Source: Proteromonas lacertae
Lineage: Eukaryota
DNA: 64,000 nucleotides
Direction of reading: 5' to 3'
NCBI GenBank assembly: GCA_002245135.1
Contig: NGBS01000591.1
Span: 62,001 to 126,000 of the forward strand
This document shows positions 6,488 to 46,830 of this stretch, piece by piece; the first letter of the stretch is position 1, and each line of letters starts with the position of its first letter. A model generated the notes under the pieces. The model ran no database searches. It saw only the letters and a program-made list of their open reading frames with translations, and was not told the origin of the DNA. A program made the position numbers and the translations under genes.

Positions 6488-8160
6488 TTATTCATCCTGA
6501 AATTCAATTTCTTCTTCTCTTCCAATTGCTTTTCTAATTCTTCATCATATCCTTCAATCACTATCATTGCATCATCACTCATTCCGTAATATTCTAAATT
6601 CTTTTCCACATCATCAATCGGACTTAACATCATCTCATCTTTTACTTCATAGATAATGGTAAAGTTTTACTTATTCTTTGATCTCAGAAATTTCTTGAGA
6701 TCTCGATTTCTGAGTAGCAAATGGAATCATTTAAAAGTTGAGGATAATTCTTTACCACATTATTCTTAAATTCAGCTGAACAATTTACCCATTCATTGTA
6801 ATCTTTAAAGTTGTTTTCCTCCATTATATCAGTTATCCATTCTATGTACTCGTCTTATGTCACTTCCATTTAGTCTAGTTAATGTTGGAATTCGAGCGAT
6901 TATTTCTGGACGATATATCTCTGGACAAAAATCTTTTGTTAATGGAGTTTCTTTTAAACGTAAAGTTTTTTGTTGACAATTTACTTATATTACTGTTATG
7001 ACAATTTACTATTTCTACTGTTGTAAAAATTGGTAATTCTCTATATATATATTTTTTAATAATATACTCATTAATATCTCCTAATGGATTATATCCAAAT
7101 AATAATACTTCTAATTTTGGTAATTTGATTATTTCATTGAAATTATTCCATTTATCAATATCATTATGACATAAGTCAAATACTCGTAAATGACTAAATA
7201 CACCTTTAGGGATTCCAGAAGATAATTCTTTTATATGATTTCCTACTAAATATAATTCCATTAATTTTGGTAAATAAGGAGAAATTGTTACTATATTACA
7301 CCATAATACTTTGGTATATGATAATATTAAATCCTATTTATATTATTATAATTGTATAATGTTTATATTTATATATTAATACAGTTAAGTGATTAAAGGC
7401 ATTTTCCATTATTGATTTCATTGGTAATGTTTTTGTATTATTATTTTCATCACTTTCAGTTGTAGTTGGAGCTGGTGGAATATTTGATTCAGTTGTTATT
7501 GTTGTTGATGATGATGAAGTTGATAAGGCTGATTCAGTTAAAGCATGACCAATTTTAGATACATCATTCCATTCTATAAATATAAATAATTTAAATAATA
7601 CATACTAAAATCAAATTTTCATGAATATCTACTCTTTGAAGATTCTTAGCCATTACAGATAATACTTTTTCATCACCTATTTCACTCACACACTCATTGG
7701 GAGTTGAAGCTACCTAAATTTGATCTAATTTTTGATATTCTCTAGAGTATTACATTATTATCATTATTATAGAATAAATATATTATCTTTTTACCTCCTA
7801 CTAGTTTTGCCTCTACCGATTTACCCTTTTCAGTCTCTACAAACATATCTTCACCAACTCCACCCATTTCATCCTCTCATACTCTTGGGAGTATCTGTCT
7901 TGTAATGCCTGAATCAATGTCTTTCCAGTTTCTAACATCTTTGGTTTGACAAATGAGCCCATTTTCTCACCACATGTGAAATATCTTATCACATTTCCAT
8001 CAGAATCAGTAACTGAACCATCATACTTCCCTCTTCCTTCTAGATCTTACTCAACACCTATGAATGATTGGTCTTGATCCTTTGATATGCAAACAGGACC
8101 AATGTACCTTACAGTGCCTTTTATTTTGACATTTTCTTTATCTGCAACACGTTGTCCAAA
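6488..8160 (-). pseudogene. TBCE: Tubulin-folding cofactor E (CAP-Gly + LRR + UBL), disrupted
   Basis: Hand translation gives GQRVADKE..KGTVRYIGPV..FIGVE*DLEGRGKYDGSV (CAP-Gly, with TAA at the conserved Trp). LRRs lie in 6875-7261 and a UBL-like tail (NLEYYGMSDDAMIVIE) ends the gene. It has further in-frame stops and no clear start codon. Confidence 0.75.
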
Positions 8161-8403: not shown

Positions 8404-8790
8404 TTAGTCAAAAACATTAGATCTAATGATTAGTGATTCTTCTTCAGCTTCTTTAATGACTTCACTCAGTCTATTTCTGTAGAACTCTATTTTCGGTGGA
8501 TTGACTGATGAAGGGAAATTGTAGTATATATTTATACATTGACCTACTACATTTTGATGCTTGAAAATATCATCAACAAGGAATGTATGGAGCTTACTTC
8601 TGACTGCTGCTGTCTGGTCTCCATAAAATTTCATTACATCATGCCATTTGCAACCATTATCTCTAATGAACTCCAATTCTCTCTGAAATGTTAATCTTCC
8701 TTTTCTATTATTGTAAATGGCTGAATGATTGATCGAATGTCTCTTACTTTCTTAATTAGGTCTGGGACAACTATCATCTTAAAATCACTA
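8404..8790 (-). other. 3' fragment of an unknown intronless ORF abutting the virus-like gene
   Basis: 90-aa ORF with coding-like sequence continuing upstream across a frameshift to about 8790. No family recognised. Confidence 0.3.
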
Positions 8791-10269
8791 TAGTTTTTGC
8801 CATTGATGGCATAGCTTTTGATAATTCACTAATACCTTTAACTGCAGCAGCAGTTGTTGCATCACCTCCATTTGCAGCTGCAGCTACAGTTGCTGCTGTT
8901 TTTAATGTATCACCTACATTTTTTGCATCTATATTTCCAATATTAGAAAATTTGTAGAAGAATGGAACTAATTGAAATAAGTATCGAACATATGGATGAG
9001 TATTGAACATAAATGAAACACCAAAGTTATACAACAAGTCTACAGGTAACATTGATTTAACTTTTTCTGAATTACCATAATACAAGTCAGTGATAGCAGG
9101 TAATCTACCACCTGACAGCATACGAATTATTTCATAGTAGTCGAAAATGAAGTACCACATTACATACAAGAACCCTGATGTTGGTAGTTTAGATTTTTTC
9201 CATAACCAATAAGCCAAACATGTCATTACTATTGCACGAACATATATCATTGCATGATCTACTTCAAACATTTGAGGAGTAACTCCACCTACCAAATATG
9301 ACTTCATTGTATAGTATATTTGTGGAAATATCCTAAATACATTCTCTACACACAGGAACAAATTACCAGCAAAACCCATAAAATCAGATTCACGTAATGA
9401 ATCGAGTGCTTTTTGAAATTGTGAATTTTCAAATTGTGCCCATGAACTACAAGCAGTTTTCACTAAACCAATAGCTATTTCATATTTTTGTTTATTATCT
9501 GCATTCACCCACTCTTGAGGAAGTGAGTGACCTAACTTCTCTCTGTTATAATCAAAGTTAATGAAATCTCTACTATTCTGTGATGCTATTTCATTCAGTT
9601 CTCTATATTTATCTTCATTAATCCATGTATGCGGTTCTTTATCTATATCTATAGCACTATTCACCAGTTCTTGATTTTTTGGATCTAATGCCCATCTATA
9701 AAATTTTGATCTTTCTAATATCTCTTGATCATCCATATATCTTTGTGCCTTTTGATTATTCATTGCAATATATTCTTTTACTTTTTCAGCTCGATTCGGA
9801 TCAAAATTATATGGATCTGAATATTGATTGATCTTACTTACTCCATCAACTAATTCATTCTGCAAATACTCCTGCTGTAATAATAGTTTGTTATAATATT
9901 CTATTGCATCTTTATCATTACCTGTTAATTTATCCCAAGTTGAGGTCAACCAATCTTGTCTATAATTTTTATAGGCTGCTAATTGAGGATTCTTTTCTAT
10001 AATCTCTTGTAATGATTTATAATTTTGTAATTTAGGAAATTTTTGTAACAAAGGATATGTAACTCTATTCATTCCATTATCATATGCCTGAACATCTGCT
10101 TCTGTAACATATTCAGGCCAATTCAAAAGATAGCTTCTTGGATTAGATGTATCTAATTCTGCTAATGGATATGTTCCTCTTAAATGTCCTGTTTTATGTT
10201 CACGATCTAGCATATCATAAAAATTAATATGATAATTGTTAGGCAACATTGAAGCATAATTATCTGTAA
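8774..10269 (-). CDS. Virus-like structural/core polyprotein paralog A, 3' part
   Basis: 491-aa intronless ORF sharing identical blocks with the ORFs at 14972-16634 (LLLQQEYLQNEL, ASQNSRDFINFDYNREK, YYEIIRMLSGGRLPAITDLYYGNS). Homology extends upstream to about 10269. Confidence 0.55.
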
Positions 10270-10808
10270 TGTTGGTGGGATGAGAGTAAAGAGAAATTAA
10301 TTCAAAGATTAGGTATTTCTGATGTAGATGAGACTGTGCGCATTACACCTAATATGTTCCTTGAGTGTGTTAACAAGATTAAGGAGAAAAGAAACCCATC
10401 TTTTGAAAAAAACTCATCAATTATTAGAAAGTATTATTATGATGAATCATGAAGCTAATATATTACCTCCTCCTCCTCCTAATGATAATAGTAATAAAGA
10501 AATAGAAGAAATACAAGTCAAGCTTGAAAATGACAATGACAATGTCAATCTCACAGATTATGACTTATCTCCAATATCACCAAGATCCATTAAGGATGAA
10601 TATATTAATAATAACCAATGTCTTGTAAGTTAGTTTATTGATAATAAATACATTACTTTGATTAATTTTGTTTTCTTATATAAGATTCTCATAAACACAC
10701 ATGGACTTTGATGTAATAACTGTTTTGCTTTCAGTTCTCGTATTTGTATTGTATATGATAGCTTTGGCTCTTTTCAAATACTTAAAGGCACACAATTGTA
10801 TTCCAAAC

Positions 10809-11894
10809 CAGGGTTGTATAAATCGGTCATGACCGACGGAGAAAACCGATCGGTCGTAGGTCAATAAATAAATGTTGACCGACACCAGGCTGTAGTAACT
10901 ATTAGCTGACCTCCTCCTAAACATGTGATATTAATAATATTATCTAACTGTACATATTGAATTCAAGCTCTATATATCATTCTATAAAATACCCAATTAA
11001 CCGTCGGTCGATGTGCTTTTTTCTTTCTTCATAATTGAATCTAACCTTACCAATGAGTTATTCTATTGTGTTATATATGTAATATAAAGTATAGAATGAT
11101 TATAAAAATTTGAAAGAAAAAATGGCAAACTTTTAGCTTGACATTAATCATTTCTTAAAATTATCATAAATGTATCTAATATAATCTATCATTATATATT
11201 CTAGGAGTATAGTTTTACCAATTGGAGCGGCTCGTGAAGTTATTGCCTTAAAAGAGGCAAATATGCTTAAACATCTTAATTTTAACTTTTACAAAACCTT
11301 TTGGTATAATATGTTAAAGATAAAAAGCCTTGATAAATGCATTTGCAGTAAAAAGAAAGAGATTAATTATGCCAAATGAAGTACAAGAATATTTTCAATA
11401 TGATATTCATTACAGCACCTCTGAAACCATTGGAAATATCTGGCTATCATTAAAGTCCAAGTTTCCTAGGGTATACATACTTGCCAATAACAGTTTAAAC
11501 AGTCTAGCAACATCTTCAGAGCCAGAAAGAATATTTTCAGAGGCTGGACAAATAAGTAACTTATCCAAATCAAATTTATCATGTGATAGATTACAAATGA
11601 AACTGATGATTAGTAGAAATAAATAAGAACATAATTATATAAAATACCTAATTATTGTTGAGTATTAAATTGTAATTCTTTATAAAAAGTTAAAAATTAT
11701 TTAATTGAATTGAAAATATATGAATCAAGTATTAAAATATATTATAAGATAGTTTTTATGAAGGGAAAATTAGTATATAATGAATTAAAATAGATTTTAT
11801 AATATACGGCTTGTATGGCTTGACCGACCGACGGTCAAGGCAAAACCTATAGGTTTTGACCTATCTCCGTCGGTAACAGATAAATACAACCCTG
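10809..11894 (+). mobile_element. Non-autonomous hAT DNA transposon derivative
   Basis: TIR CAGGGTTGTAT at 10809 and ATACAACCCTG ending at 11894; GACCGAC/CGGTC subterminal repeats at both ends; internal hAT dimerisation-domain remnant. No matching 8-bp TSD. Confidence 0.8.
11330..11626 (+). pseudogene. hAT transposase C-terminal dimerisation domain fragment
   Basis: WLSLKSKFPRVYILANNSLNSLATSSEPERIFSEAGQI matches the W...FP.L...A...L..PATS...ER.FS.AG consensus. Confidence 0.85.
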
Positions 11895-11912
11895 TATAAT
11901 ACCACTATTACA

Positions 11913-12377
11913 ACCTAATTTCTTAGTAGCCAAGAGATGCCTCCGTGGGATACTCTCTAATTTTAGTTTATTTCTTCTGTGATGTTTCTTATGATTGAAA
12001 TGAACATGTTTTCTTCTACCTGAACCTGTCTTTGGATATCCATCTAAAGACATACCAAATAAACCATAATTTACTTTTGGCCATAAATGATATTCACTAC
12101 CCATACCATTAATTAAATTACACACATCTGATCGTGCTTCTGGAACACTACGACCACATTGATATTTGAAATAATGTAAGTAATCTACTAATTGATCTAT
12201 TGTTCCTCCATAGCTGGAATACTTTGATATAATATCTAATGGCAATCCTACATTTTTACATACATTTTCTAAATCTTGTTTTGTATTATTCATAACCATT
12301 TGCTTAACTGATTCATAATCATATTGATTAATCAAAAATGGTTGTATTTTTTCCATAATAGCATCTACATTATATCT

Positions 12378-12414
<37 letters not shown>

Positions 12415-13790
12415 ATTGGTTGTGTGTTATTTTGCAATGTTGGCTGGGCTGCTGCCGCCGGGGCGCAGCAGCACCTGCCATCATTCCGGCGTAGTTTGCA
12501 ACATTTGAACTTTGATTATTATAACCTGCACCAGTTGCAGGTATTGAAGTTGTAACATTAGAACTGGGGGCAGTTGTAGTACTATTAGTTGTATTATTAG
12601 AACTGGCCCCAGTTGTAACATTCGATGCTTGAATATTTGAAGTGGCCGGCGCACTCGTCGAATTTGTTGTTGCAGGAGTAGCACCAAATATACCTCTGAA
12701 CCAATTGTATATATTACTTAGTGATGTAGTAAAGAAACCCATTATACTATCTAACTTAAAATGAATCCATTGTGACATATCCATTGGAGGAACTTGTTTC
12801 CAACGATTATATACCAAACTGACAAAATTAGGAGTTAACATTGACACAAAAGATGCTGCATTAACCCATGCTGGGGATAAACCAAATATCCATTGCATAA
12901 CACCACTATATCCTATTCCTGCATTTACTAAATACTTTAATATTGCACCAACAGTATTATCAGGAAATAGTATTTCAAACACTTGTGAAATAGAACCTAA
13001 TGTCATAGTACATAAGCAGAACTTCACACCAAATTTCAACCAATTGTATGTTGTATTACCTGAGAAATATTTATCAATTTTTGAAATTAATGATTGTTTT
13101 TTTCTTTCTTCCATTGTTGCTATCTTTCTCTGATATTCTTCATTCCTTGCTTTCACTATTTCATTTTCTTGTTGTAATTTATACTCGTGATCTTTTTGTG
13201 TTGTACCAGCATTATTATTCCATCTTGGATTGGATTGATATGAATTTACATTGTACTGTGATCCCCATTGTTGTAATGGTTTTCCTTCAATTTGAGATAA
13301 AAATGGATTTTGCCATTGATATGTTAAATTCTCTGGTTGAGCATAATAATCTGAGTATGGCTTGTTATACTTACCTATGTTCCTATAATATCGTCCAAAC
13401 TGGTCTGTGATGCCTGACATATATAATTTGTATTTCATCTCATCAGTCATAAAATTGTTTTTTGTTGCGTTTATATTTGGATTAACAGGCTTTGATAATT
13501 CCTCTATATCATCATCCTCATCTCCTATAGTATCATAAAATTTATTGAAACTAGATTTAGGATCATAGACGTCTAATCCATATGTACCATTCATTGCCTT
13601 TGTCAACATTGGCTGTTGGGTTAGCCATGTGACTGAGATCTAGTTTTATTTTCTTGTTATCTTTCACTTTGTTATAGATGATCTTTTTCAATTTTCTCTT
13701 AAGTGCATTATGATACACAGAAGGATTCTCAAAATCAATTGCTTCTTCTTTTGGTGATGATTGTTGCTTATGCTTTCGTTTAACAACCAT
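11913..13790 (-). pseudogene. 5' part of virus-like polyprotein paralog A (three overlapping ORFs joined by frameshifts)
   Basis: ORFs 13563-13790, 12365-13609 and 11847-12437 overlap consecutively. The last reads KHVHFNHKKHHRRNKLKLESIPRRHLLATKKLG, homologous to KHVHF..HRKHNRKSKL*LKSIPHRHCLATNVLG upstream of ORF 14972. Also TM segments, a Thr/Ser/Asn-rich linker and poly-Q. Confidence 0.55.
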
Positions 13791-13868
13791 AAAATATATA
13801 AAACAATATAAAAAAAAAGAGAAACAATACTATTAGAAATATAGCCGTTATTGATATTATAGATGATA

Positions 13869-14195
13869 TTAACTCTTCTTTCGTTCTACAGATTGCCATC
13901 CATCATCATCAAAATCAGATTCAAATTCATCATCTTCTTGTTCTTGTTTTTGTTCTTGTTGTTGTTCTTCTTCTTCAAAATCAGATTTGAATTCATCATC
14001 ATCATCATCATCATCATTTTTAGGATTGTTTGCTTCTCTCCAATCCTCTCTTATTTTCTTTTGTTCTTCTGGTGTTATATATTGCATTATCTTATCAAGT
14101 TCATCTTTTGTTAATTCTGAAATATCATGTTTAATATCAGTAAATGGCTGTACTTTAATATCTGTTTCTGCTTTAGGAGTAATCAATTTATTCAA
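13869..14195 (-). CDS. Small acidic protein of the virus-like cassette
   Basis: 108-aa intronless ORF with a D/E/Q-rich tail and a repeated DDEF(K/E)SDF motif. Confidence 0.45.
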   Translation of the reverse strand: MNKLITPKAETDIKVQPFTDIKHDISELTKDELDKIMQYITPEEQKKIREDWREANNPKNDDDDDDDEFKSDFEEEEQQQEQKQEQEDDEFESDFDDDGWQSVERKKS

Positions 14196-14227
14196 CTTCT
14201 ACTATTATATATAAATTAACATGAATT

Positions 14228-14761
14228 TTATACCATTTGTTGCATTTGTGACATCTTGATTTGGTTAATTGGATTACTCATATATTCACCCATCTGCATC
14301 CTAGTCTTTGCACTTGCTTGAGCCATTTCATTGTAATTAGGTCTATTCATATTCACATACATGTTAGGACCAAACAAATGCTGATCATCAATCTCTCTTA
14401 AACTATTAGCAAGTGGTATAGCCATTGCATTACCTTCATGTAATGATGTGGATAACATAGAATCGATTGCATTCTGTCTCTCTAAAAATTTTTGCTCATC
14501 ATTCAATTTACGAATATCACTTTCATTAGGAAGAGTGTCTTTAGAATTCAACTTAGTAATCTCATCTTTTATTTCTTTTAAACGACTGTTTCTCATATCC
14601 ACTAAATCTTTTGCATTCTCTCTATAAAAATTATTATATAAACGCTGATAATATTTGTCATGTCCTTTATACCCTTCACCTCTCCGTATCTTCTTCCTTT
14701 TGCCTTTGCCTCTCATCCGAGCAAACACAGCAAGTAGTATTTTCTTATTCAGTTTTTTCAT
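14228..14761 (-). CDS. Basic-N-terminus protein, putative virion core/DNA-binding protein
   Basis: 177-aa intronless ORF with RMRGKGKRKKIRRGEGYKG (GxG motifs inside a basic tract). Confidence 0.5.
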   Translation of the reverse strand: MKKLNKKILLAVFARMRGKGKRKKIRRGEGYKGHDKYYQRLYNNFYRENAKDLVDMRNSRLKEIKDEITKLNSKDTLPNESDIRKLNDEQKFLERQNAIDSMLSTSLHEGNAMAIPLANSLREIDDQHLFGPNMYVNMNRPNYNEMAQASAKTRMQMGEYMSNPINQIKMSQMQQMV

Positions 14762-14809
14762 AATAACTTAATAGAAAATAAAAAGAAACAATTTAATTAT
14801 CATATATAA

Positions 14810-16759
14810 CTGAATTAGGTAATGATCCAAATAGTGTAATTGATGAACTACCTAAGAAAGGATTCTTTGGTTATGGAAGATAACATAAAAAACATGTTCA
14901 TTTTCAAAAAACATAGAAAACATAATAGGAAGAGTAAATTGTAATTAAAATCAATTCCACATAGGCATTGTTTGGCTACTAACGTTTTAGGAGGTGTTGT
15001 ACAACTAAATATGGGAACAACAGTAAAACTTAATGAACACTTTGTTGTTCCCAATCCAAGACAAAGTGTAGATGAAGGTAAAATACCAATCTATATACCA
15101 ACTCAATTACCAACTAATGTACAACGATATATACCAGAACAGCCTGTTGGATACAATTATAATTGGAATTATAATAAATTGTTTGGACCTGGTTTAAGTA
15201 GACAAGCTAGAAGAGAGATTCAATATCTAATCACAAATAACTATGCTCAACACTTATCTAATAATTGTCACATTGATTTATATGATATGAGAGATCCAGC
15301 ACATAAGAAAGGTAATTTAAGAGGTACTCCAGCATTAGCTCAATTAGATACATCAATGCCAAGAGAATATATTTTAAATTGGCCTAAAGGTGTTACAGAA
15401 CAAGATGATATGGCATATGATAATGGAGTGAATAAAATAACAGATGATTTATATAAAAGATTTCCTCAATTACATGGTTATAAGTCGTTACAGCAAGCAA
15501 TTGAAATGAATCCTGAACTACAAGCATACAAAAACTATAAAAATAATATATTATCTAAAGGATGGGACTATATTATGGGAAATAATAAGGAAATGAATGA
15601 ATATTATAATAAGCTATTACTGCAACAAGAGTACTTGCAAAATGAATTAGCAGATGGTGTTAGTAAAATACATACTTATTCTGATCCATCTAATCTCGAT
15701 GCTGAAAAAGTTAAAGAATATATTGCATTAAATAGTCAAAAAATGGGTAGAGTAATGAATGATGATCAAATAAAAGACCAATCACTCTTTTTTAAATTTG
15801 CTACTGAGAATCCAGACATTATGTCAAAAGTTCCAGATATAGGTCAAGGTGAATGTTCACCAATAAATGAAGATTATTATAGAATGCTTAATGAAGTAGC
15901 TTCACAAAATAGTAGAGATTTCATTAATTTTGATTATAATAGAGAGAAATTTGCTCATGAACTTCCTGAAGATTGGATGGCAGCTTCTAATCCAGAAAAA
16001 GTATCGATAGCATTTGGTTTGCTGAAAACAGCATGTTCATCATGGGCAAAATTTGAAAATTCACAATTTCAGAAGGTATCGGACTCTTTGAAGGAAACTG
16101 ATTAACAGGTTTTGTAAGTAACTTATTGTTGTGTGTAGAAAATTTGTTTAGGATATTTCCTCAGATATATTATACATTCAAAGATTATTTAGTTGGTGGA
16201 GTGACTCTTCAAATGTTTGAAGTAGATCATGTAATGAAATATGTACGTACAATATTACTTTCATGTTTGGCTTTTGGTTATGGAAGAAGGCAAAGTTGCC
16301 AATGACAGCCTTTCTGTATGTAATGTGGTACTTCGTGTATGATTATTACGAAATTATTCGTATGTTGTCAGGTGGTCGTTTACCTGCTATCACTGACTTA
16401 TATTATGGTAATTCAGATAAAGAGAAGGCTATATTACCAAAAGCATTACAAAACTCTTGGTTACCGATAGATTTAATTTATAATTTTGGTGCATCATTTT
16501 TGTTCAATAAACATCCCTATATCAGACATTTGTTTCAAGCAGTGCCATTTTTGTTTAGGTTTACTGGTATGTCACCTCCTAATTTAAGTAATGATAGTTC
16601 AGGATCGATATTGAAAGCTGCTTCAGAAGTGTAGCAACAGTGATAACAGCACTTACTGAAGCCAGAAGGACATAAACATAAGAATAGAATGCAATTTCCA
16701 ACTACGTTCCAAAACAACAACAATCAATTCCAAGTTCATTCACTAATTTTGGTAGAGCA
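14810..16759 (+). pseudogene. Virus-like polyprotein paralog B (frameshifted, 5'-truncated)
   Basis: ORFs 14972-16105 and 16263-16634 plus the intervening frame (TGFVSNLLLCVENLFRIFPQIYYTFKDYLVGGVT) align collinearly with the 491-aa paralog A. There are stops and frameshifts at about 14880-14945, 16105, 16262 and 16630. Confidence 0.6.
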
Positions 16760-17248
16760 ATGAGTAACTTAGATCAATTAAAACAAGTTAATCAAGCTTT
16801 AAATTGGTTTCAAAGAGGTAATGGAAATAATAAAAAAGTAAAGAAATTAATTTCACGTAGGAAGATTTTATATAACAATATCACTTCAGATGCCTTATCG
16901 AACTTTGATATAGAGTTAATTGTGAAAAATGAGTTCAATAATTTTCACGGAAAGTTCATGGGAGTGTTCTGCTGGGACGAGCTTGTACTTCCTACACCCA
17001 AAAAGAAGAATCAATGGGGAATCATAATCAATACACTCACCACACAAGCTAGCCCTGATTCTATAGGTCATTGGGTGGCCTTAGTAGTTGACAATATCAA
17101 GAAGCAATTCCTGTACTATGATTCATTTGGTGAAGATCCTCAACACTTAGAAAAATTCAAAAAAAGTTTGAAAAAATTAAAGAAGTATCATAATGAAAAG
17201 TATGAACTTAAAATCAATGGAGTACAGAACCAAAATTCAAATACTACC
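16760..17248 (+). pseudogene. Adenain/Polinton-virophage-type cysteine protease (clan CE), 5' part, interrupted by the Ginger insertion
   Basis: Motifs FMGVF, IIINT, GHWVALVVD, YYDSFG and VQNQNSNTT. The catalytic Cys lies beyond the insertion. Confidence 0.85.
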
Positions 17249-17351
17249 TGTTGTTCCCCGTTGAGTACAACTCCCCGTTGAGCGATTAGAAACTTTAGAA
17301 ACAAACTAATTATATAATGTTATTACTCATAATGAGTTATGAAGGGATATA
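17249..17351 (+). repeat. Left TIR of the Ginger element
   Basis: TGTTGTTCCCCGTTGAGTACAACTCCCCGTTGAGCGAT... is the reverse complement of 27323-27425 and contains two direct copies of TCCCCGTTGAG. Confidence 0.95.
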
Positions 17352-18383
17352 ATGTTACCTTGTCATATAAGCTACTTTTGTGAGTAAAAAAATAGTGTCA
17401 TAATATTGAGAAAAAACTACATAAATGAGTGTTAGAATTAATTTATATTTCATATTTTATGTTTTTATTTTAATATGATGTCTAAATAAAAAGTGACAAA
17501 ATTTAAGGATTTAAGAATTATACCCCTTCTGACGTCAGTGTTTTCACACAAACTTTCTCAAACTACATTCATTTCATTTTTTTGATTTTAAAACTATTAA
17601 AATAGTTAATATTATTGTAATTTAAATAATTAGCATAAATGGATTTTTATCATACAAAATTTGCTGTTTTTATATCACCAATATAGATATAAACAAAAAA
17701 TGTGTAATTGTGGAAATATATTTATAGAAAAAGTGTCTTTTTATTTACTATAATATATATAATGAGTGTATAATGAGTATAGTTAATATATTGTATCAGA
17801 TCTTAAAATCACTTGCAAATCAGAATACACTCTTTTGTTTTCTTAATACAAATTAAATAATGTTTATTATTTTATATAAAATACAGCTAATTAACCAAAT
17901 CACACTTCTCGCATTACATTCTTATACATTCAACTCTTCTGGACTTATGAAACATATACCATTTATTTTTATATGCTTTTCTTTTCTAAGTGTTTATTAA
18001 TATGTTTTTCATACAACTTAAAAAACTATTGTAAAACAAAGAAAATAACACAAACCTCAAGCCTATGATAATATTTGAATTTTGATATCAAAAATGTAAG
18101 TGTTATATATATATATATTATTATTATTATATTATTATATATTATATATTATTTATCAATTTATTTATATATATATATATTTTGCGTTAAAGGTAGATAT
18201 AGATGAATATAGTCATTGGTAAGAAGAATGAATATTATGTATAGTTAGTAAAATATTTTTCTCAATTTGGTAGTCAATCATTATATTCATTTATCGATAA
18301 TTATGATAAAGAAATTTTTAATGCTCATTTGGAAACTGTTTTGGAATTGTATGTATATATTTTGTTATAATTGTTGTTTATAG

Positions 18384-19500
18384 ATAAAAGGTGATAATGC
18401 GAATAGAATGAAGATGAACATAAAGTTGAATCCTCTAATACTAAAGAAGATGAGATAAGTCAATTGAAAGAAGAGTTGAATGAAATGAAGAAAGAAAAGA
18501 ACGAATTAGAAAGTCAATTGAAAGAGATGAAAGAAGAATCTAAACCATATACTGATGAAATTGAATCATCAAATAGTTAAAAAAAGAATAAAGAATAAAT
18601 AGAGAAAGAGTTGAATGAATTGAAAAATAAAATCAAAGATAATAATAAGATAGAAAATGATGTAATTTACAAAAGTGAAAAACTTGGAATAAGTGAAATA
18701 GAAGAAATAGAAAATGAATTGAAAGAAGAATGAGATAAATCTAATCAATAGAATGTAGAATTACAGAAGAACAAAGATGAATTAGAGAAAGAAATAACTC
18801 AATTAAAAGAACATCAATCTAAATCTCAGAATGAATTAGAGAATGAATTAAATGGATTGAAAGAACAACTAGATAAATCCAAAGAAGAGAAAGAAGAAAT
18901 GAAAAAGAACAAAAAAGATTTAGAGAATGAGTTGAAGAAAATGAATGATGAAGTAATAAAATGTTAAACCATTTTAAGATAATTCAAGTATTTATTTTAT
19001 TCCCATAATCAGTACTTCAGTTTAGTTATATCAACATGATGACATGATAATGAAGAAATGATTGAATAAGTGGGTAATGATCCTGAAGTGTTAGCTTTTA
19101 TTGGAACTTCTACTAATGAAGAAAGATAAGCAATTCATCCATATTTGTCAGAATATAATAAATAATTATTCTCATTTTATGTTGTAGAAGTTTAAAAAAG
19201 TTTACAAGAATGTAATACAGTTTGGAAGAATGCCTCATCATTATATGATTAAAGTATTTAATTATCACTATATTAATAGAAGATTATAATATAACATTGA
19301 ATAATGAGAATGGTATAATAAGTGGATTTCCAACTAATGAATTGAATAATATGTTGAGAATAAAAATAACAGGTAATAATGATAAAGAAGGAATAGAAAT
19401 AGAAAATTCAGTTATTAAACACATTCAGTTGCAAACCTATCTCACATATTATGAAACAAAATATATATTTTGTAAGTGAAGAAGATAAGAAAAAATATAG
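18384..19500 (+). pseudogene. Degenerate host-like gene fragment (K/E-rich coiled coil + Ig-like remnant) carried inside the Ginger element
   Basis: Long E/K-rich coding-like tract with several in-frame stops. LNNENGIISGFPT resembles the IDKESGIIHGKVN Ig-like motif in the host gene at 3478-4536. Confidence 0.5.
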
Positions 19501-19786
19501 AATAGAATAATATGAAGGCAAATGAAATTGACAGATAAAACAAAAGGAGTGTTTGTAAGAATAAATGTGAATAAGTGTATTTAGATAATGTATTACTTTA
19601 GGTGATTTTACATTAGTTGGTATGAATTTATTGTTTTTTGAGGTTTTATTTCAGCAATACATAATTAGAATTCAATGATTTATATAAAAAATAACAGTAA
19701 AAACATTAGCTATATATATTTATTACTATAACTATATATATACATATAATTCTCATTTATTTCATAATATATATCATAATATATAG

Positions 19787-22700
19787 GTTTTCTGAAGTAT
19801 TACACCTTGATCAAGTACTTGAGGACGATCACAAACCTCTTTATTATCAAGCACTTGATAAGTTGTTTAAAGAAAAAGCCTCTTCCAGCGGCGATAAAAA
19901 GAGAAAAGAACACAGAAGAAGTCATTCTGTAGGTATCGAAAAGAGAAAGAAAGGAAACAAAAGAAGCCGTTCTACTAGTAGTAATGAAGTAGAAGAAGAT
20001 AATTATCGTTGTAGAAGCTTTACCAAAAAGAAATACGATGATTATGTAAAAGATATAAACTTCTATTCCAACAAAGGTTATTCTTACGATGAAGAGACAA
20101 AGCAGTTATTGTTTAAAGGAAAGAAGGTTATTAAAATTGAAGAATCGTTTGATGTACTAAAAGAATTACACGAAGGTAATGGTCACATTACAATTGAACC
20201 TTTGTATTACTTGGTAAATGAAAAGAAGTACTATGGTATTACCAGAGAAATGGTAGATGTATTCGTAAAAACATGTTCTGGATGTAAAGAATTGAAGAAA
20301 GTTCATGTTGAACAACCGTTAAAACCGATACTATCAAGCTATCCACGCGAAAGAGTGTTATGCGATCTAATTAATATGAGTAAAATCAATGAGAAATTTA
20401 CAGTTACTGAAGAAGAACAGTTTAATTACATTCTTACAGTGATTGATCATTACAGTAATTTTACAATTATATATCCATTAAAGAGAAAAACAAAAGAAGA
20501 AACAGTGAAGAATATGCGAAATTATATCAGAATTTTTGGTGCTCCTCAGATTCTTCAAATGGATAATGGTACTGAATTCAAGAATGATTTGATGAGAAGT
20601 TTATGCAATGAATATGGAATTGAAGAAGTTCATAGTGCACCATATAGGCCTCAAACGAATGGAAAGGTAGAAAGGTACAATCGAGTTGTGAAAAACACTT
20701 TAAAAGGATTTATGATGTCGAATAAAGGCATTTATTGGACTGAATTTGTTGATAAAATTATTGAAACAATAAACAATCACAAGTGCAGAAGAACACATTC
20801 TAAGCCTAGATCTTTATTCTATATGGATATTGAACAATTAAAGAAGGAAAACCCAAAGTTATTTATAAAAGAAAATGGCGAAGAAGATGGTGATAATGGT
20901 GGTAATAATGGTACAGTTGATGGTGATGATGATGGTAATGTTTGTCATGATGAATTATGTGATTGTTCTAAAGAAGATGATAAAGAATATTTTAATGATG
21001 ATGAATACGATGAAGTTGAAGTAATAGAAATAGCAAAAGAAAAATATGATGAGAAGAAAAACATAGAAAACATCAGAAAAGATATTTTGAAAAATGAACA
21101 TAAACTCCAACAAGTAAAAGATTACATTAATAAAAGAAGAGATGAATACAATGATAAAATGCATGATGAATCAGAAAAAAAGCTGAAGAAAACTATTATC
21201 AATCCTAAACATGGTGATATAATTGTCTATACCGACAAGAAGAAGAATTACGCAGATAACAACAAGAAAGGAATAATTAAAGAAGATAAAAAAACTAAAG
21301 ATTTATATGGATTGTATACTATTAATATTTAAATTAATATAATTATATAGGATTGATGACCAAGCAATTAAACTTACTACATCTTCAGCATTTACAATAA
21401 TACCTGTTACAAAAGAAGTAAATGAAAAAATGAAAAGAAAAGCTGATGAATTATATGTATTATAAAGTTTATTATTATTATATAATAGATGAATCCTCAA
21501 TCAAAGAAAAGACTATTAGATCCTGATTATAAGAAACAATTACATGAAATAGTTCATAGGCCAAAGTTAAATGCAGTCTATGGAACTATAGCTATAGGAG
21601 CAATTGATATTAAATTAGATTCATCATCACCATTAGAAGAAAGTCGATTAGAATATGTTAAATCTGTTAGAAATAAAATTGGAACAATGCAGTTGGATAT
21701 TATAGATGTAAGATTTATATTGGATTTATATACTTATGGAAGTCAATTTGATCTATTATTAGAGAATGATGAATGTTTAGGTACTTATATAACAACTAAA
21801 AATAGGGATATTTATATAATTAAGTCGGATAGTAGGTATTATACAACGTATCAGACATTAGTAAAAGGTATAAAGTATATTCATGTCATTGACTCATCTA
21901 ATAAAGGTAATTATAAAACAGATTTAGAGAAACTCAGAATTAAAGTTGGTAAAGATAAAGATCAATTCAGATTATTAGTTGATAAGGTGGAAACAAATCA
22001 TCCAGAAGCTACAGATATAGTTTCATTGGTAGTATTTATGATGAAATGTAAGGGTGCAAATATTATTAGTGTTGACACAAGGTTATTAGGAGATTTGTTT
22101 AAAGAATATATAGATACATTAATCAATACCAATTCATGTTTATTGAACTTGGCATTTTTTAAATCATATTGTTCAAAAATATCAACATCATCAATTACTT
22201 ATGAAGAAGAACAAGAAAGCCATGGTTTAAGCTTTGTAAAAAAGATAAGAAAAGTATTTCAGTATGATGATAAGATTGTTTGTTACAAAGGTAAAGAAAG
22301 GGCTGGAAACATCAGTAAATGTGAAAAATTAATATGTGATATGAATACTAATTATGAGTTAAATACAGACGAGTTCACACTTCTACTACATTTCATCAAC
22401 AATGACAATAGTGATGTTATAGATCCATTGGTACTATATCAGAGTGAAGCTCCCAATCACCCCATTCATCATAGTGGTACTTATTTCATTCCAGTATGCA
22501 GAGAACATCATTGGACAGTATGGGAGGTGGAATATGTAAAGAATGAATCAATTACATGTTATATCCATGATTCAATGAAAGAATATACTCATGACTCTCA
22601 AGATAGAAGGTATTTATACTCTGATATTACATCATTATTTGACACAGAAAACATCGATATCTCTTATAAATGCAGTAAAATAATACCATTAGATTATGAG

Positions 22701-22934
22701 TTAAAGAACTTAAAACAAAAAGGTGATAAGAGCTGCGGTTATTTTGCATTGTTCTTTTTAGGTATAAGAAAGATGAATATGGAAATTGAAGATGTGGAAC
22801 ATATAGAATCTTTCAATATATCGTACTTTATAATGGATTTAAAAAGGGTTTTAGCATCATTGGATAATAATGATAAAGCAAAGTTATATTGGTATAAAAA
22901 GCATAAACCATCATTCTATAAATTCAAATGCTAA
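19787..22934 (+). CDS. Ginger transposase: HHCC zinc finger + rve DDE integrase fused by splicing to an unknown domain and a Ulp1/C48-like protease
   Basis: LHEGNGH...CSGC; catalytic LCD, QMDNGTEF and NGKVERYN. GT-AG introns at 21314-21350 and 21457-21488 join ORF 19863 in frame to ORF 21489, which has HHWTVW, YIHDSM and KQKGDKSCGYFAL. The first exon was not located; an acceptor AG lies at 19785-19786. Confidence 0.88.
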
Positions 22935-23044
22935 CATCTATATTAATTAATTATAATAATGTTTTATTGTAACTTGTTTGTTTTACAAATTTAACTTTTA
23001 AATAACAAATAATTAAAAGTATATAAATTCATATTCACTATTCC

Positions 23045-26000
23045 TATTAAGATTAAAATATGTGTATGTAATACACATACTATAATACATCTATCTATAT
23101 ATTAATATCAAAAATTACTCAAAATTTGACTGAATCTAGTTTCAGATTCAGTCAAATTTTAAGTAATTTTTGATATTAATATATATTTATATACAATTAA
23201 TAGTATCTAACATATACAGAGAGTATCAAGTTAATACTGTGTGTCTGTACTCAACAGGGAGAAAAGAGTAAATTTCATCCCATTGAGTACAGACAAACAG
23301 TATTAAGCTTATAGTATGTGTATGTAATACACATACTATAATACATCTATCTATATATTAATATCAAAAATTACTCAAAATTTGACTGAATCTAGTTTCA
23401 GATTCAGTCAAATTTTAAGTAATTTTTGATATTAATATATATTTATATACAATTAATAGTATCTAACATATACAGAGAGTATCAAGTTAATACTGTGTGT
23501 CTGTACTCAACAGGGAGAAAAGAGTAAATTTCATCCCATTGAGTACAGACAAACAGTATTAAGCTTATAATATGTGTATGTAATACACATACTATAATAC
23601 ATCTATCTATATATTAATATCAAAAATTACTCAAAATTTGACTGAATCTAGTTTCAGATTCAGTCAAATTTTAAGTAATTTTTGATATTAATATATATTT
23701 ATATACAATTAATAGTATCTAACATATACAGAGAGTATCAAGTTAATACTGTGTGTCTGTACTCAACAGGGAGAAAAGAGTAAATTTCATCCCATTGAGT
23801 ACAGACAAACAGTATTAAGCTTATAATATGTGTATGTAATACACATACTATAATACATCTATCTATATATTAATATCAAAAATTACTCAAAATTTGACTG
23901 AATCTAGTTTCAGATTCAGTCAAATTTTAAGTAATTTTTGATATTAATATATATTTATATACAATTAATAGTATCTAACATATACAGAGAGTATCAAGTT
24001 AATACTGTGTGTCTGTACTCAACAGGGAGAAAAGAGTAAATTTCATCCCATTGAGTACAGACAAACAGTATTAAGCTTATAATATGTGTATGTAATACAC
24101 ATACTATAATACATCTATCTATATATTAATATCAAAAATTACTCAAAATTTGACTGAATCTAGTTTCAGATTCAGTCAAATTTTAAGTAATTTTTGATAT
24201 TAATATATATTTATATACAATTAATAGTATCTAACATATACAGAGAGTATCAAGTTAATACTGTGTGTCTGTACTCAACAGGGAGAAAAGAGTAAATTTC
24301 ATCCCATTGAGTACAGACAAACAGTATTAAGCTTATAGTATGTGTATGTAATACACATACTATAATACATCTATCTATATATTAATATCAAAAATTACTC
24401 AAAATTTGACTGAATCTAGTTTCAGATTCAGTCAAATTTTAAGTAATTTTTGATATTAATATATATTTATATACAATTAATAGTATCTAACATATACAGA
24501 GAGTATCAAGTTAATACTGTGTGTCTGTACTCAACAGGGAGAAAAGAGTAAATTTCATCCCATTGAGTACAGACAAACAGTATTAAGCTTATAATATGTG
24601 TATGTAATACACATACTATAATACATCTATCTATATATTAATATCAAAAATTACTCAAAATTTGACTGAATCTAGTTTCAGATTCAGTCAAATTTTAAGT
24701 AATTTTTGATATTAATATATATTTATATACAATTAATAGTATCTAACATATACAGAGAGTATCAAGTTAATACTGTGTGTCTGTACTCAACAGGGAGAAA
24801 AGAGTAAATTTCATCCCATTGAGTACAGACAAACAGTATTAAGCTTATAGTATGTGTATGTAATACACATACTATAATACATCTATCTATATATTAATAT
24901 CAAAAATTACTCAAAATTTGACTGAATCTAGTTTCAGATTCAGTCAAATTTTAAGTAATTTTTGATATTAATATATATTTATATACAATTAATAGTATCT
25001 AACATATACAGAGAGTATCAAGTTAATACTGTGTGTCTGTACTCAACAGGGAGAAAAGAGTAAATTTCATCCCATTGAGTACAGACAAACAGTATTAAGC
25101 TTATAATATGTGTATGTAATACACATACTATAATACATCTATCTATATATTAATATCAAAAATTACTCAAAATTTGACTGAATCTAGTTTCAGATTCAGT
25201 CAAATTTTAAGTAATTTTTGATATTAATATATATTTATATACAATTAATAGTATCTAACATATACAGAGAGTATCAAGTTAATACTGTGTGTCTGTACTC
25301 AACAGGGAGAAAAGAGTAAATTTCATCCCATTGAGTACAGACAAACAGTATTAAGCTTATAGTATGTGTATGTAATACACATACTATAATACATCTATCT
25401 ATATATTAATATCAAAAATTACTCAAAATTTGACTGAATCTAGTTTCAGATTCAGTCAAATTTTAAGTAATTTTTGATATTAATATATATTTATATACAA
25501 TTAATAGTATCTAACATATACAGAGAGTATCAAGTTAATACTGTGTGTCTGTACTCAACAGGGAGAAAAGAGTAAATTTCATCCCATTGAGTACAGACAA
25601 ACAGTATTAAGCTTATAATATGTGTATGTAATACACATACTATAATACATCTATCTATATATTAATATCAAAAATTACTCAAAATTTGACTGAATCTAGT
25701 TTCAGATTCAGTCAAATTTTAAGTAATTTTTGATATTAATATATATTTATATACAATTAATAGTATCTAACATATACAGAGAGTATCAAGTTAATACTGT
25801 GTGTCTGTACTCAACAGGGAGAAAAGAGTAAATTTCATCCCATTGAGTACAGACAAACAGTATTAAGCTTATAATATGTGTATGTAATACACATACTATA
25901 ATACATCTATCTATATATTAATATCAAAAATTACTCAAAATTTGACTGAATCTAGTTTCAGATTCAGTCAAATTTTAAGTAATTTTTGATATTAATATAT

Positions 26001-27042
26001 ATTTATATACAATTAATAGTATCTAACATATACAGAGAGTATCAAGTTAATACTGTGTGTCTGTACTCAACAGGGAGAAAAGAGTAAATTTCATCCCATT
26101 GAGTACAGACAAACAGTATTAAGCTTATAATATGTGTATGTAATACACATACTATAATACATCTATCTATATATTAATATCAAAAATTACTCAAAATTTG
26201 ACTGAATCTAGTTTCAGATTCAGTCAAATTTTAAGTAATTTTTGATATTAATATATATTTATATACAATTAATAGTATCTAACATATACAGAGAGTATCA
26301 AGTTAATACTGTGTGTCTGTACTCAACAGGGAGAAAAGAGTAAATTTCATCCCATTGAGTACAGACAAACAGTATTAAGCTTATAGTATGTGTATGTAAT
26401 ACACATACTATAATACATCTATCTATATATTAATATCAAAAATTACTCAAAATTTGACTGAATCTAGTTTCAGATTCAGTCAAATTTTAAGTAATTTTTG
26501 ATATTAATATATATTTATATACAATTAATAGTATCTAACATATACAGAGAGTATCAAGTTAATACTGTGTGTCTGTACTCAACAGGGAGAAAAGAGTAAA
26601 TTTCATCCCATTGAGTACAGACAAACAGTATTAAGCTTATAATATGTGTATGTAATACACATACTATAATACATCTATCTATATATTAATATCAAAAATT
26701 ACTCAAAATTTGACTGAATCTAGTTTCAGATTCAGTCAAATTTTAAGTAATTTTTGATATTAATATATATTTATATACAATTAATAGTATCTAACATATA
26801 CAGAGAGTATCAAGTTAATACTGTGTGTCTGTACTCAACAGGGAGAAAAGAGTAAATTTCATCCCATTGAGTACAGACAAACAGTATTAAGCTTATAGTA
26901 TGTGTATGTAATACACATACTATAATACATCTATCTATATATTAATATCAAAAATTACTCAAAATTTGACTGAATCTAGTTTCAGATTCAGTCAAATTTT
27001 AAGTAATTTTTGATATTAATATATATTTATATACAATTAATA
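23045..27042. repeat. Tandem array of ~15.6 copies of a 256-bp multi-hairpin unit
   Basis: ATTAATATCAAAAATTACTC recurs at 23101, 23357, ..., 24381 and 26941 (period 256). Units appear identical except at one A/G site. Confidence 0.97.
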
Positions 27043-27322
27043 ATTAAGTTTAATATTTTTAATTACGAAAAAATTTAAAAAGATGTACAAAAATATAAAC
27101 AATTACATATGAAATTAACGATAAAAAAATAATTAAGGGGGTAAAAAAATTCAGGATTTACAACACATTTTTTTGTTTATCTCATCATCCAATTGAAAAT
27201 TTTTGAAAATAATTTATATTATTAATAAGCATAATATGTACATATATAATATGAAATAAAAGTGAACTAGTTGGTGTAATAGATGATATCGCGACATGTT
27301 GTATATGTTATATGACCACCTA

Positions 27323-27425
27323 TATATCCCTTCATAACTCATTATGTGTAATAACATTAAGTAGTTAGTTTGTTTCTAAAGTCTCTTATCGCTCAACGGG
27401 GAGTTGTACTCAACGGGGAACAACA
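27323..27425 (-). repeat. Right TIR of the Ginger element
   Basis: Ends ...GCTCAACGGGGAGTTGTACTCAACGGGGAACAACA and is followed by the TSD CTACC. Confidence 0.95.
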
Positions 27426-27430
27426 CTACC

Positions 27431-27568
27431 AACTGCGGTTTTTTTGCTATTAATTTTTTGAAAAATATTTTAAGAGATCAGTGTAATTTCAAAAAGGCTA
27501 CTGACTATAATACAATAGTGGGTGAAGCAAAAATTAGGTTAATGAAAAAACAATTTGGATTAATATAA
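27431..27568 (+). pseudogene. Adenain-type protease, 3' part carrying the catalytic Cys
   Basis: Removing the element and one TSD restores the frame ...QNSNTT-NCGFFAINFLKNILRDQCNFKKATDYNTIVGEAKIRLMKKQFGLI*. Confidence 0.88.
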
Positions 27569-28497
27569 AAAGAAATATTCGTTTTATTTTTTGGTGTTAT
27601 TCTATTGATTTATCATTTTTTCTAATTCTGGGTCTTTGTAATATTTTTCTGAACCAAGTATCTCGTGCTTCATCTTTTTTCGCTAGCTGCAGCTTATAGT
27701 GCTTAAAATGAATAAGTGAAAAATCTGGTATCTCTCTGCCATCTTGATCTCCAAAACAATACGAATATCATTTTACGTCTTCGCTCCTTAAATCTCACCA
27801 AGTCACCAACTTCGAAATTTTGGTCATTTTTTTCAAGTTTTTCAAAATTTTTCAAATTATAGTTTATTGACTTCATTATTTAAAAAAATAAACCTTCATC
27901 CAAACAAAAACATCTCATTATTAACCAGTTTAGTATTGCGTATTTTCTGTAACCTAACTGCATACTAAAATCAAATAATCTAAATCAAATATACCAGTTT
28001 GAATGATTGATTTAGATAATATACCTTGTAAAATGCGAGAAAATTCTATCATATCAAAGTAATAATGAAACATTGCTAGTATTGCTAATAACTTCTTCTT
28101 TTCTGCATTCTATAATATAATTGTTGATGTTGGTAATATATAGACTACTTCAAAGCATGATTCACTGAAATATTAATCATGGGATCTACCTTGTAACATT
28201 TGACCATAAAAATTATTAATAGAGGTAATTGTACAAAAATAACAACCATAAACAATAATTCATTTTTCACAGTATTATAATTTGTTACATAAACCACTAC
28301 TATACATTTCCAACACACATTCTACTCTTTATTACTTAGATTAATATTTATTTATCCAATGTTCATTTAAATGAACTATATGCTCAGATAAAAATATGTA
28401 TATATGAATTAAACTAAATTTAATTAATAAATAGTAAGAAATTTAAATAAAAATGCAAAAAAGAAAAAACAACTAAATGTTTGAATAACAAGCTCGT

Positions 28498-28787
28498 AAG
28501 GGGGTAAAAATATTCAGGAATAGAATTTTATTTTTGTTAATATCTTCATAATATAATAGAATTGGTATAAAATATTTTATATATGAAATGAGTATAATTC
28601 ATACATACATTTTATATAGTAAAATTTAATATGATAGTCTATTTGTTGATATTAACATGTCTAGTATACATTATAAAACTAAACATATATTTGAACATAA
28701 CTCATCTTCAACATCATAAATATGATATTAGTTTTGAAAAAGTCTTCTTAACGCCCAACGGCGCATTTAGCTCAACGGCGCACAACA
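28498..28787 (+). mobile_element. Orphan right end of a second, diverged Ginger-family element
   Basis: GCCCAACGGCGCATTTAGCTCAACGGCGCACAACA mirrors the first element's right terminus. AAGGGGGTAAAAA.ATTCAGGA lies 289 bp inside this end versus 290 bp in the first element. Confidence 0.7.
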
Positions 28788-29114
28788 AAATAGTTTTAAT
28801 ATTTGTGGCATTTGTATTCTAGAAATTTTTGAAGCAAACTAAATGCATATTTAGCTAATATAGACTAAAATACATTAGCTGAAATGATTAGAACAACTTA
28901 ATGTTGATCATAAGACATTTAAAATGAAAAAAGAAAATATAGAATCAAGCCTCACTCAAGCCTATATTCTACATTTTTTTTATATAGAAAGATTTAATAA
29001 TTATTATATTCTAATCATTTCAGCTAATGTATTTTAGTCTATATTAGCTAAATATGCATTTAGTTTGCCGCAAAAATTTCTAGAAAACAAACGGCGCAAA
29101 TATTTAAACTATTT
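28788..29114. mobile_element. MITE-like/foldback element with ~106-bp inverted arms
   Basis: 28788-28893 is the reverse complement of 29009-29114 with about 7 mismatches, around a ~115-bp non-coding spacer. Confidence 0.7.
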
Positions 29115-45665: not shown

Positions 45666-46830
45666 TTATAACTTATTATTATTTAGCTTATTCCTATTTT
45701 TAAAATAATTAGTTAAAAAGAACTCTCCTGCTTTATAACTTGACCTAACTAAAGGTCCACTAGCAACAAACACAAATCCCATCTCTTCTCCCAACTTCCT
45801 CCATTCTTCAAATTTCTCAGGTTTCACATACCTACTAACAGGTATATGTTGTTTAGATGGTCTTAAATACTGTCCAAATGTACAAATATCCACTTTATTC
45901 TCCAATAAATCTTTCATACATTGAATTACTTCATCATCGTTTTCTCCTACACCTAACATAATTGATGACTTGGTAATTACATTGGGATTATATAATTTAG
46001 CTTTTCTTAATACTTCTAGTGATTGTCTATAAGAAGCTCTTCTATCTCTCACACGAGGAGTAACTCTTTCAACACACTCTATATTATGAGCAAATACATC
46101 CAATCCACAATTCGCTACATTCTTAATAAAGTCATCTTTACCTTGAAAATCGGGGGTTAAACATTCTATCAAAATTTTCGGTGCTTTTTGTTTCAATAGT
46201 TTTACTGTTTTAATAATATGATTACTTCCTAAATCCTCTAAATCATCTCTATCTACTGATGTTAAAACAACATAATTCAATCCCCAGTCTGCTATTGCTT
46301 GAGATACATTCTCTGGTTCATCTTCATTCAAAGGAGGTGGATGTCTTGATGTTTTTACAGCACAAAACCTACATCCTCTTGTACAAGTGTCTCCCATTAA
46401 CATGATTGTTGCTGTGGCTGTACCTTCTTTACCACCCCAACATTCACCAATGTTTGGACAATGGGCTTCTTGACATACTGTTGATAAATGAAGATCTTTG
46501 ACTGTACTTTTCAAATGATCATATTTTTCACCTTGTGGCATTTCTGCTCGAATCCATTCTGGTTTCGATTCAAATTTTGGTTTTCTCTTTGTTGTTGACG
46601 AAGTTGTTGTGCCTTTTATAAAATCATTCAAATTTGGTCCATCTTTCAGTTCATTCTATTCGTAATTAGCATTACTATGACAATACTTTTAATTTTTCTA
46701 CTCTGGAAGCAGTATTTGAGTTGATTGTATCACTAGACACAAAGCATCTATTGAAATGAATATTTCCTATTTATGTAAACGCATTTATAGTAATACTTAA
46801 TCTTAAATTGCGGCCAATCACACGAAACAT
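45666..46830 (-). CDS. LIAS: Lipoyl synthase, mitochondrial (radical SAM)
   Basis: CQEAHCPNIGEC, CTRGCRFC and GPLVRSSYKAGE; two short 5' exons. Confidence 0.95.

Follow-up and report, generated by a model that had tools for sequence, protein, structure and literature searches.

The 4-kb tandem array at positions 23045-27042 of the window (the whole stretch of 64,000 nucleotides that was analyzed) lies wholly inside the TIRs of a Ginger-type transposon whose 5-bp TSD is perfect and whose transposase frame is open. This array is very probably a satellite internal to the transposon, and we lean toward the fuller explanation that the satellite carries additional copies of the motif present at the element's own ends, copies that would not be cleavable but at which binding of the transposase is predicted. 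The evidence comes from a single copy of the element, which offers a clean, young case of satellite formation in a transposon that is apparently intact, and in which the last doubling can still be read. Arrays in DNA transposons are known already; what is unusual here is the hairpin-rich form.

Anatomy of the Element and Its Transposase Gene

The element spans 17249-27425 (10,177 bp), and the features observed within it are collected in Table 1. Array-masked self-comparison showed the TIRs to be 89% identical, with the first 38 bp identical. The preliminary description had placed the array within the TIRs and 3' of an integrase-protease gene, and this position was borne out: the array starts 111 bp past the stop codon (22934) and ends 266 bp from the right TIR. 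The gene itself stood with a qualification, in that the raw sequence has the integrase in one ORF and the protease in another; predicted GT-AG introns, one of 37 nt and one of 32 nt, link the two in frame.

Table 1. Features of the element, in order along the window
Feature	Position	Strand	Basis
Left TSD, 5 bp, CTACC	17244-17248		Flanks of TIRs
Left TIR, TGTTG start, two 11-bp motif copies at 17-bp period	17249-17370	+	Self-comparison
Captured fragment resembling host kinase gene 57992-58124, cargo	17857-17993	-	75% DNA identity; tblastn 61% over 44 aa, E 8e-13
Decayed coiled-coil-like frames, probable further cargo	18400-19480	+	Short frames interrupted by stops
Transposase exon, H2C2 finger and DD35E integrase core	19787-21313	+	Pfam rve E 2.7e-14; H2C2 E 5e-4 (below cut-off); motif spacing
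Predicted short exon flanked by 37-nt and 32-nt GT-AG introns	21351-21456	+	Keeps frame open; by eye resembles C-terminal tail of homologue P0002
Last exon, ~270 aa without assignment, then Ulp1/C48 protease	21489-22934	+	Pfam C48, motifs
256-bp tandem array, 15.6 copies	23045-27042		TRF, unit alignment
Hairpin H2, first copy	23096-23185		41 pairs and 1 mismatch, 6-nt loop
Hairpin H3, first copy	23231-23306		Arms with TIR-like motif: 23246-23260, 14/15 nt; 23277-23291, 12/15 nt
Hairpin H1, first copy	23309-23341		15 pairs, 3-nt loop; houses sole variable A/G site
Right subterminal region, homologous to sister end 28415-28787	27043-27307	+	66% over 391 columns
Right TIR	27308-27425	-	Self-comparison
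Right TSD, CTACC	27426-27430		Flanks of TIRs

The integrase showed an HHCC finger and D-35-E spacing. When the C-terminal 211 residues of the last exon were submitted to Pfam, C48 was returned at 24.0 bits against a cut-off of 20.7, and His, Asp, Gln, and Cys protease motifs were present in this domain. The whole ORF 21489-22934 gave no Pfam match, no homologue at E up to 0.001, and no match to a solved structure; the idea that its first half is a further, dead protease domain found no support. Close transposase homologues made up 4 of 13 matches, at 42-47% identity, and no named Ginger protein was among the matches of the protein searches. The start exon of the gene was not located. The host is an AT-rich protist. 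A Blastocystis host, which short introns might suggest (PMC12129017), was not supported: the corresponding poly(A) signal motif was not enriched (9 seen versus about 6 expected), and in a quick tree of 41 rows the lipoyl synthase of the window did not fall with three Blastocystis proteins. The array may accordingly lie inside or past the mRNA. The element is apparently young.

Insertion occurred in a C48-like protease ORF (16688-17248 and 27431-27567), which is broken just before its catalytic cysteine motif and whose frame resumes past the element. A second, related Ginger-like element is present downstream as a right end (28415-28787, the sister end) that has a TGTTG end, is 66% like 27045-27425, and carries a different TIR motif; its left end was not found in the window. 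One subterminal motif (17522, plus strand; 27142 and 28505, minus strand) is conserved in both subterminal regions and in the sister end. It points inward and could be a promoter.

Assignment to Ginger

Judged by its TSD, termini, and motifs, the element is of the Ginger type and appears closest to Ginger2/Tdd. The Ginger call of the preliminary description was borne out by TGTTG ends, TIRs of ~120 bp, and an H2C2 finger together with a DDE integrase. The defining features of Ginger elements, and those by which Ginger1 and Ginger2/Tdd are distinguished, were set out by Bao, Kapitonov, and Jurka in 2010 (PMC2836005; here and below, statements from the literature refer to the accessible parts of the sources cited). 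Ginger elements have TIRs of about 40-300 bp with TGTNR ends and a Gypsy-like integrase with H2C2 and DDE motifs, without reverse transcriptase or RNase H. The TIRs here are of ~120 bp with TGTTG at both ends, rve scored above the Pfam cut-off and H2C2 (E 5e-4) below it, and the only long forward ORFs in the element gave rve/H2C2 and C48.

Ginger1 is marked by a 4-bp CCGG/CCGT TSD, by YPYY and GPY/F motifs, and by a C-terminal Ulp1 or OTU domain. The last of these was found (Pfam C48 above cut-off); the TSD is the 5-bp CTACC, and neither YPYY nor GPY/F was detected in a simple pattern search of the spliced protein. Absence of both motifs and a TSD of 4 or 5 bp (PMC10045372) characterize Ginger2/Tdd and were observed here. 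The RTATAY target preference of animal Ginger2 does not fit the single site here, which represents one insertion only.

In common with Ginger2/Tdd, as exemplified by TDD-4 and TDD-5 of Dictyostelium, the element has TGTNR ends, TIRs of a length within range, an H2C2 and DDE integrase, no YPYY or GPY/F, a 5-bp TSD as in TDD-4/5, and a protist host (PMC2836005). Ginger2 has been noted in a few protists (PMC3575427). The element differs from Ginger2/Tdd in its C-terminal Ulp1 domain, which is reported for Ginger1, in its size of 10.2 kb versus 2.6-7.1 kb for the listed autonomous families, and in its captured host DNA and 4-kb hairpin array, the latter being unmentioned in the accessible part of PMC2836005. 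With Ginger1 it shares the integrase-Ulp1 fusion, introns in the gene, and TGTNR ends, but its TSD is CTACC (5 bp) rather than CCGG/CCGT (4 bp), and YPYY and GPY/F are absent (PMC2836005). The range of Ginger is accordingly widened by the combination, in a protist, of a 5-bp TSD and Ginger2-like motifs with a Ulp1 tail.

Structure and Folding of the Array Unit

TRF analysis of the array returned a period of 256 bp, 15.6 copies, 99% matches, and 0% indels, and anchor-to-anchor spacing was 256 bp in 14 of 14 intervals, in agreement with the ~15.6 near-identical units of the preliminary description. The array begins just 5' of hairpin H1 and stops just 3' of hairpin H2, so ordered that 15 successive blocks of H1-H2-spacer-H3 are followed by a final H1-H2. 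A single A/G site is the sole difference among the 14 full units, and two further changes, at 23052 and 23056, are confined to the first partial copy. Variable spacers between constant repeats, as in CRISPR-type arrays, are absent, and the earlier judgment that the array is not CRISPR-like stands. A coding role of the unit was ruled out, its longest open frames being 36 and 43 aa.

All three hairpins reported previously were observed, H3 comprising a one-mismatch outer stem together with inner GGGA/UCCC and GAAA/UUUC pairs; together the hairpins cover 199 of the 256 nt of the unit. The folding energy of one unit was -103.8 kcal/mol, far below the -39.2 ± 3.9 kcal/mol of 200 shuffled sequences (z -16.4), none of which folded as well. 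When loops of no more than 20 and a single mismatch were allowed, the window minus the array contained only 3 hairpins of at least 13 pairs, the longest having 14 pairs. H1 and H2 showed no significant likeness to H3 (56, 408, and 227 of 500 shuffles), and a shared origin of H1 and H3 was rejected (56 of 500). No source emerged for H1 and H2, about half of the unit, which counts against our preferred explanation. Searches of the unit against Rfam returned no ribozyme family at E up to 1, and a hammerhead core was absent on both strands; a hammerhead satellite or retrozyme was accordingly rejected. The nonanucleotide of circular-DNA origins was likewise rejected for the array.

The stems invite a reading at the RNA level, namely that the array gives rise to a transcript, likely a minus-strand one starting from the right end, whose successive hairpins are diced to small RNAs, those derived from H3 resembling the element's ends and being potentially able to restrain it. 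Stems of 41-43 and ~23 pairs suffice for dicing, and the inward-pointing subterminal motif could supply a promoter. The folding energy calculated for RNA was better on the minus strand than on the plus strand (-122.8 versus -111.4 kcal/mol); for DNA, the minus strand was barely better (-76.1 versus -74.0). Each of the three hairpins folded equally well or better on the minus strand, where plus-strand A-C mismatches become G-U pairs. Such folding would suit a strand-specific RNA and to that extent counts against our preferred explanation, but any transition in a palindrome yields G-U on one strand, and the asymmetry rests on about three or four informative sites and would be expected by chance half the time. 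Further points against transcription into small RNAs are that Rfam returned mir-988 alone, in 15 copies, at 26 bits versus a gathering score of 72; that compensatory changes are absent among the near-identical units; and that the stems matched nothing else in the window above noise save a 15-nt motif, which is short for silencing. We regard this RNA-level reading as rather improbable.

A TIR-like Motif in Hairpin H3

The 15-nt motif matches that of the element's own ends. Each TIR holds an 11-bp motif in two copies at a 17-bp period, and by analogy with other TIR elements these sub-repeats are putative transposase sites. The arms of H3 were observed to form an inverted pair of this motif: in the left arm, 14 of 15 nt agree with the outer TIR motif copy plus flank, and in the right arm 12 of 15 agree. 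In a first scoring, none of 300 unit shuffles and none of 402 real windows reached the TIR-match score of the unit; in a second, against the TIRs, 6 of 3000 shuffles did so. Among 478 tiles of the window, the two TIR tiles ranked first and second for likeness to the unit. When the whole masked window was used as the target, 15 of 200 shuffled H3 sequences scored equally well, and the case for a TIR origin of H3 therefore rests on the match landing on the element's own ends. The match extends over 15 nt only and was noticed after the fact. Against the TIR of the sister end, the best match of the unit was 10 of 15, and 110 of 173 controls were as good.

The motif cores in H3 face each other at a distance of 28 nt; two element ends joined by a 5-bp TSD would give 29. 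Six would-be terminal bases are replaced in H3, and the terminal CA is absent. Because of this absence, the H3 sites are predicted to be uncuttable; the transposase could nevertheless bind them.

These results bear on the rival possibility that a neutral satellite of palindromes arose where it now stands, or was taken up as cargo, with the likeness of H3 to the TIR arising by chance. The whole-window shuffles favor this reading, as does the other captured DNA in the element. Palindromes and inverted repeats are, moreover, often held by satellite monomers, and miDNA4 of Xenopus tropicalis is thought to have taken up a pre-existing repeat (reviewed in PMC12628747). Against a chance likeness, it was the TIR of the element itself that gave the strongest match anywhere in the remaining 60 kb; this match is specific to the family, and its spacing differs by no more than 1 nt from that of an end-to-end joint. 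We consider a neutral satellite of this kind unlikely and TIR ancestry of H3 probable, the sequence support for the TIR motif in H3 being moderate. Of the three functions proposed in the preliminary description, the protein-binding platform gained evidence, in the form of the TIR-motif pair (moderate significance) and its predicted binding; no other function did.

Growth of the Array

At its 16 positions (6 G and 10 A), the variable site reads AGAAAGAG twice. Agreement at a lag of 8 units was observed in 8 of 8 comparisons (p 0.010); of 200,000 permutations, 1.0% agreed perfectly at one or another lag between 2 and 8. Because the variable site repeats every 8 units, a recent doubling of the array is likely. 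The periodicity fits unequal exchange as the source of such a doubling, or alternatively an assembly in which a segment was duplicated.

If the assembly were at fault, the unit would be genuine and its copy number inflated or homogenized, with the 8-unit repeat representing a duplicated read or contig overlap. The units are indeed 99% identical without indels, and the variant pattern is duplicated exactly at 2048 bp. Both flanks, however, run on into the element without a break, the two copies of the TSD match perfectly, and the split ORF resumes in frame past the element, while retention of the variable site argues against full consensus collapse. An assembly origin thus appears very unlikely.

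The sister end is homologous to the right end of the element over about 370 bp, up to where the array begins. No array adjoins the sister end, and no tandem repeat was detected there by TRF. Since the sister end lacks the array, a family-specific gain is probable, as far as a single comparison indicates.

Comparison with Arrays in Other Transposons

The strangeness implied by the preliminary description was overstated, since arrays have been described in the DNA transposons Tetris, Galileo, Merlin, and miDNA4; for Ginger, no element with a hairpin array was found described in the open-access papers searched. Tetris, a foldback element of Drosophila, has ~220-bp TIR-220 repeats with 37 bp in common with the outer TIR domain (PMC4079207), and the repeats of Galileo, also a foldback element of Drosophila, are reported second-hand to hold extra transposase sites (cited in PMC4079207). 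In Symbiodinium, tandem repeats, one with a unit of 163 bp, lie at the 3' side of Merlin elements, and Merlin families have internal repeats as well (PMC8101967). Xstir and fold-back models are covered in PMC12628747, and many TE-derived satellites are listed in PMC6947457.

In common with Tetris and Galileo, whose repeats are of ~220 bp, the element has a kilobase-size array within a DNA transposon and sequence shared between repeat and terminus, to which the extra transposase sites reported for Galileo may be compared (PMC4079207). The motif shared between unit and terminal domain extends here over 14 of 15 nt (with 6 of 3000 shuffles as good against the TIRs and 15 of 200 against the whole window). 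Tetris and Galileo differ in having repeats that are contained in the long TIRs of either end; the array here is one-sided and outside the TIR, 266 bp inside the right one, and thus lacks this hallmark of foldback elements. The open transposase frame and the units consisting mostly of hairpins are further differences (PMC4079207). With Merlin and miDNA4, the element shares a variable-copy tandem array inside a transposon with TIRs, and among those cases, too, are arrays at the 3' side in a protist (PMC8101967; PMC12628747). The transposase superfamily is different, and neither multi-hairpin units nor TIR-motif pairs are described in the accessible parts of those sources.

Exact-pattern scans gave 0 matches for the H2 core in metagenome contigs and 0 for the TIR start in viral contigs. 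Protein-led scans yielded distant integrases only (80 metagenome, 7 viral, and 80 prokaryotic loci), and in the 80 metagenome loci neither the TIR nor the unit was matched and arrays of long period were absent.

A Possible Route to the Array

Under the preferred explanation, the array could have arisen in three steps. An end-derived inverted pair, either a decayed end-to-end joint or a copy made in fold-back repair, would have landed beside two AT-rich palindromes in the 3' subterminal region; captured host DNA in the element is a sign of repair-driven copying. The palindrome-rich segment would then have been duplicated and expanded, likely via copying errors and unequal exchange, with a final step that doubled 8 units to 16. 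Thereafter, the array would travel with the element, and its ~30 motif copies, which are not expected to be cut because the terminal CA is missing, could serve as helper or decoy sites for binding of the transposase. Simple slippage does not account for as many as three separate long palindromes within 256 bp, which counts against this route. That the extra motif sites affect transposition is a tentative and doubtful proposition. Still more speculative, and in our estimation improbable to a high degree, is the notion of a built-in self-control module, in which ~30 cleavage-dead end-motif copies in hairpins titrate transposase as DNA, or yield small RNAs against the element's own ends via a diced minus-strand transcript, and copy number tunes activity. 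If the motif pairs bind transposase or give small RNAs, the element would allow a simple test of the means by which cut-and-paste transposons restrain or promote their own activity; otherwise, the array would represent the ordinary turnover of repeats where mobile elements are nested.

Surroundings of the Element

The sister end is abutted by a MITE-like palindrome of 327 bp (28788-29114), one arm of which contains an 11-nt match to the TIR motif of that end; the match is marginal (22.7 versus a control maximum of 22.4; 0 of 173 controls). Short broken frames at 27570-27880 (minus strand) bear a likeness, judged by eye, to an integrase C-terminal tail; Pfam returned DUF3850 only, below cut-off. 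Upstream, a cluster of long ORFs (8404-16634) gave no Pfam or convincing PHROG match and is possibly a decayed virus-like or mobile region. The cluster includes an inverted pair of paralogues (8958-10270 and 15230-16552, 72% DNA identity) and a fragment of a hAT transposase dimerization domain (11324-11623, Pfam E 2.9e-7). The segment 29368-29458 is a 93% copy of 7723-7813, which adjoins a leucine-rich-repeat gene (6875-7333). Farther downstream, the closest protein to the product of a lipoyl synthase gene (45669-46655) is 94% identical and others are at most 67% identical, one match with 72% coverage scoring higher at 60%.
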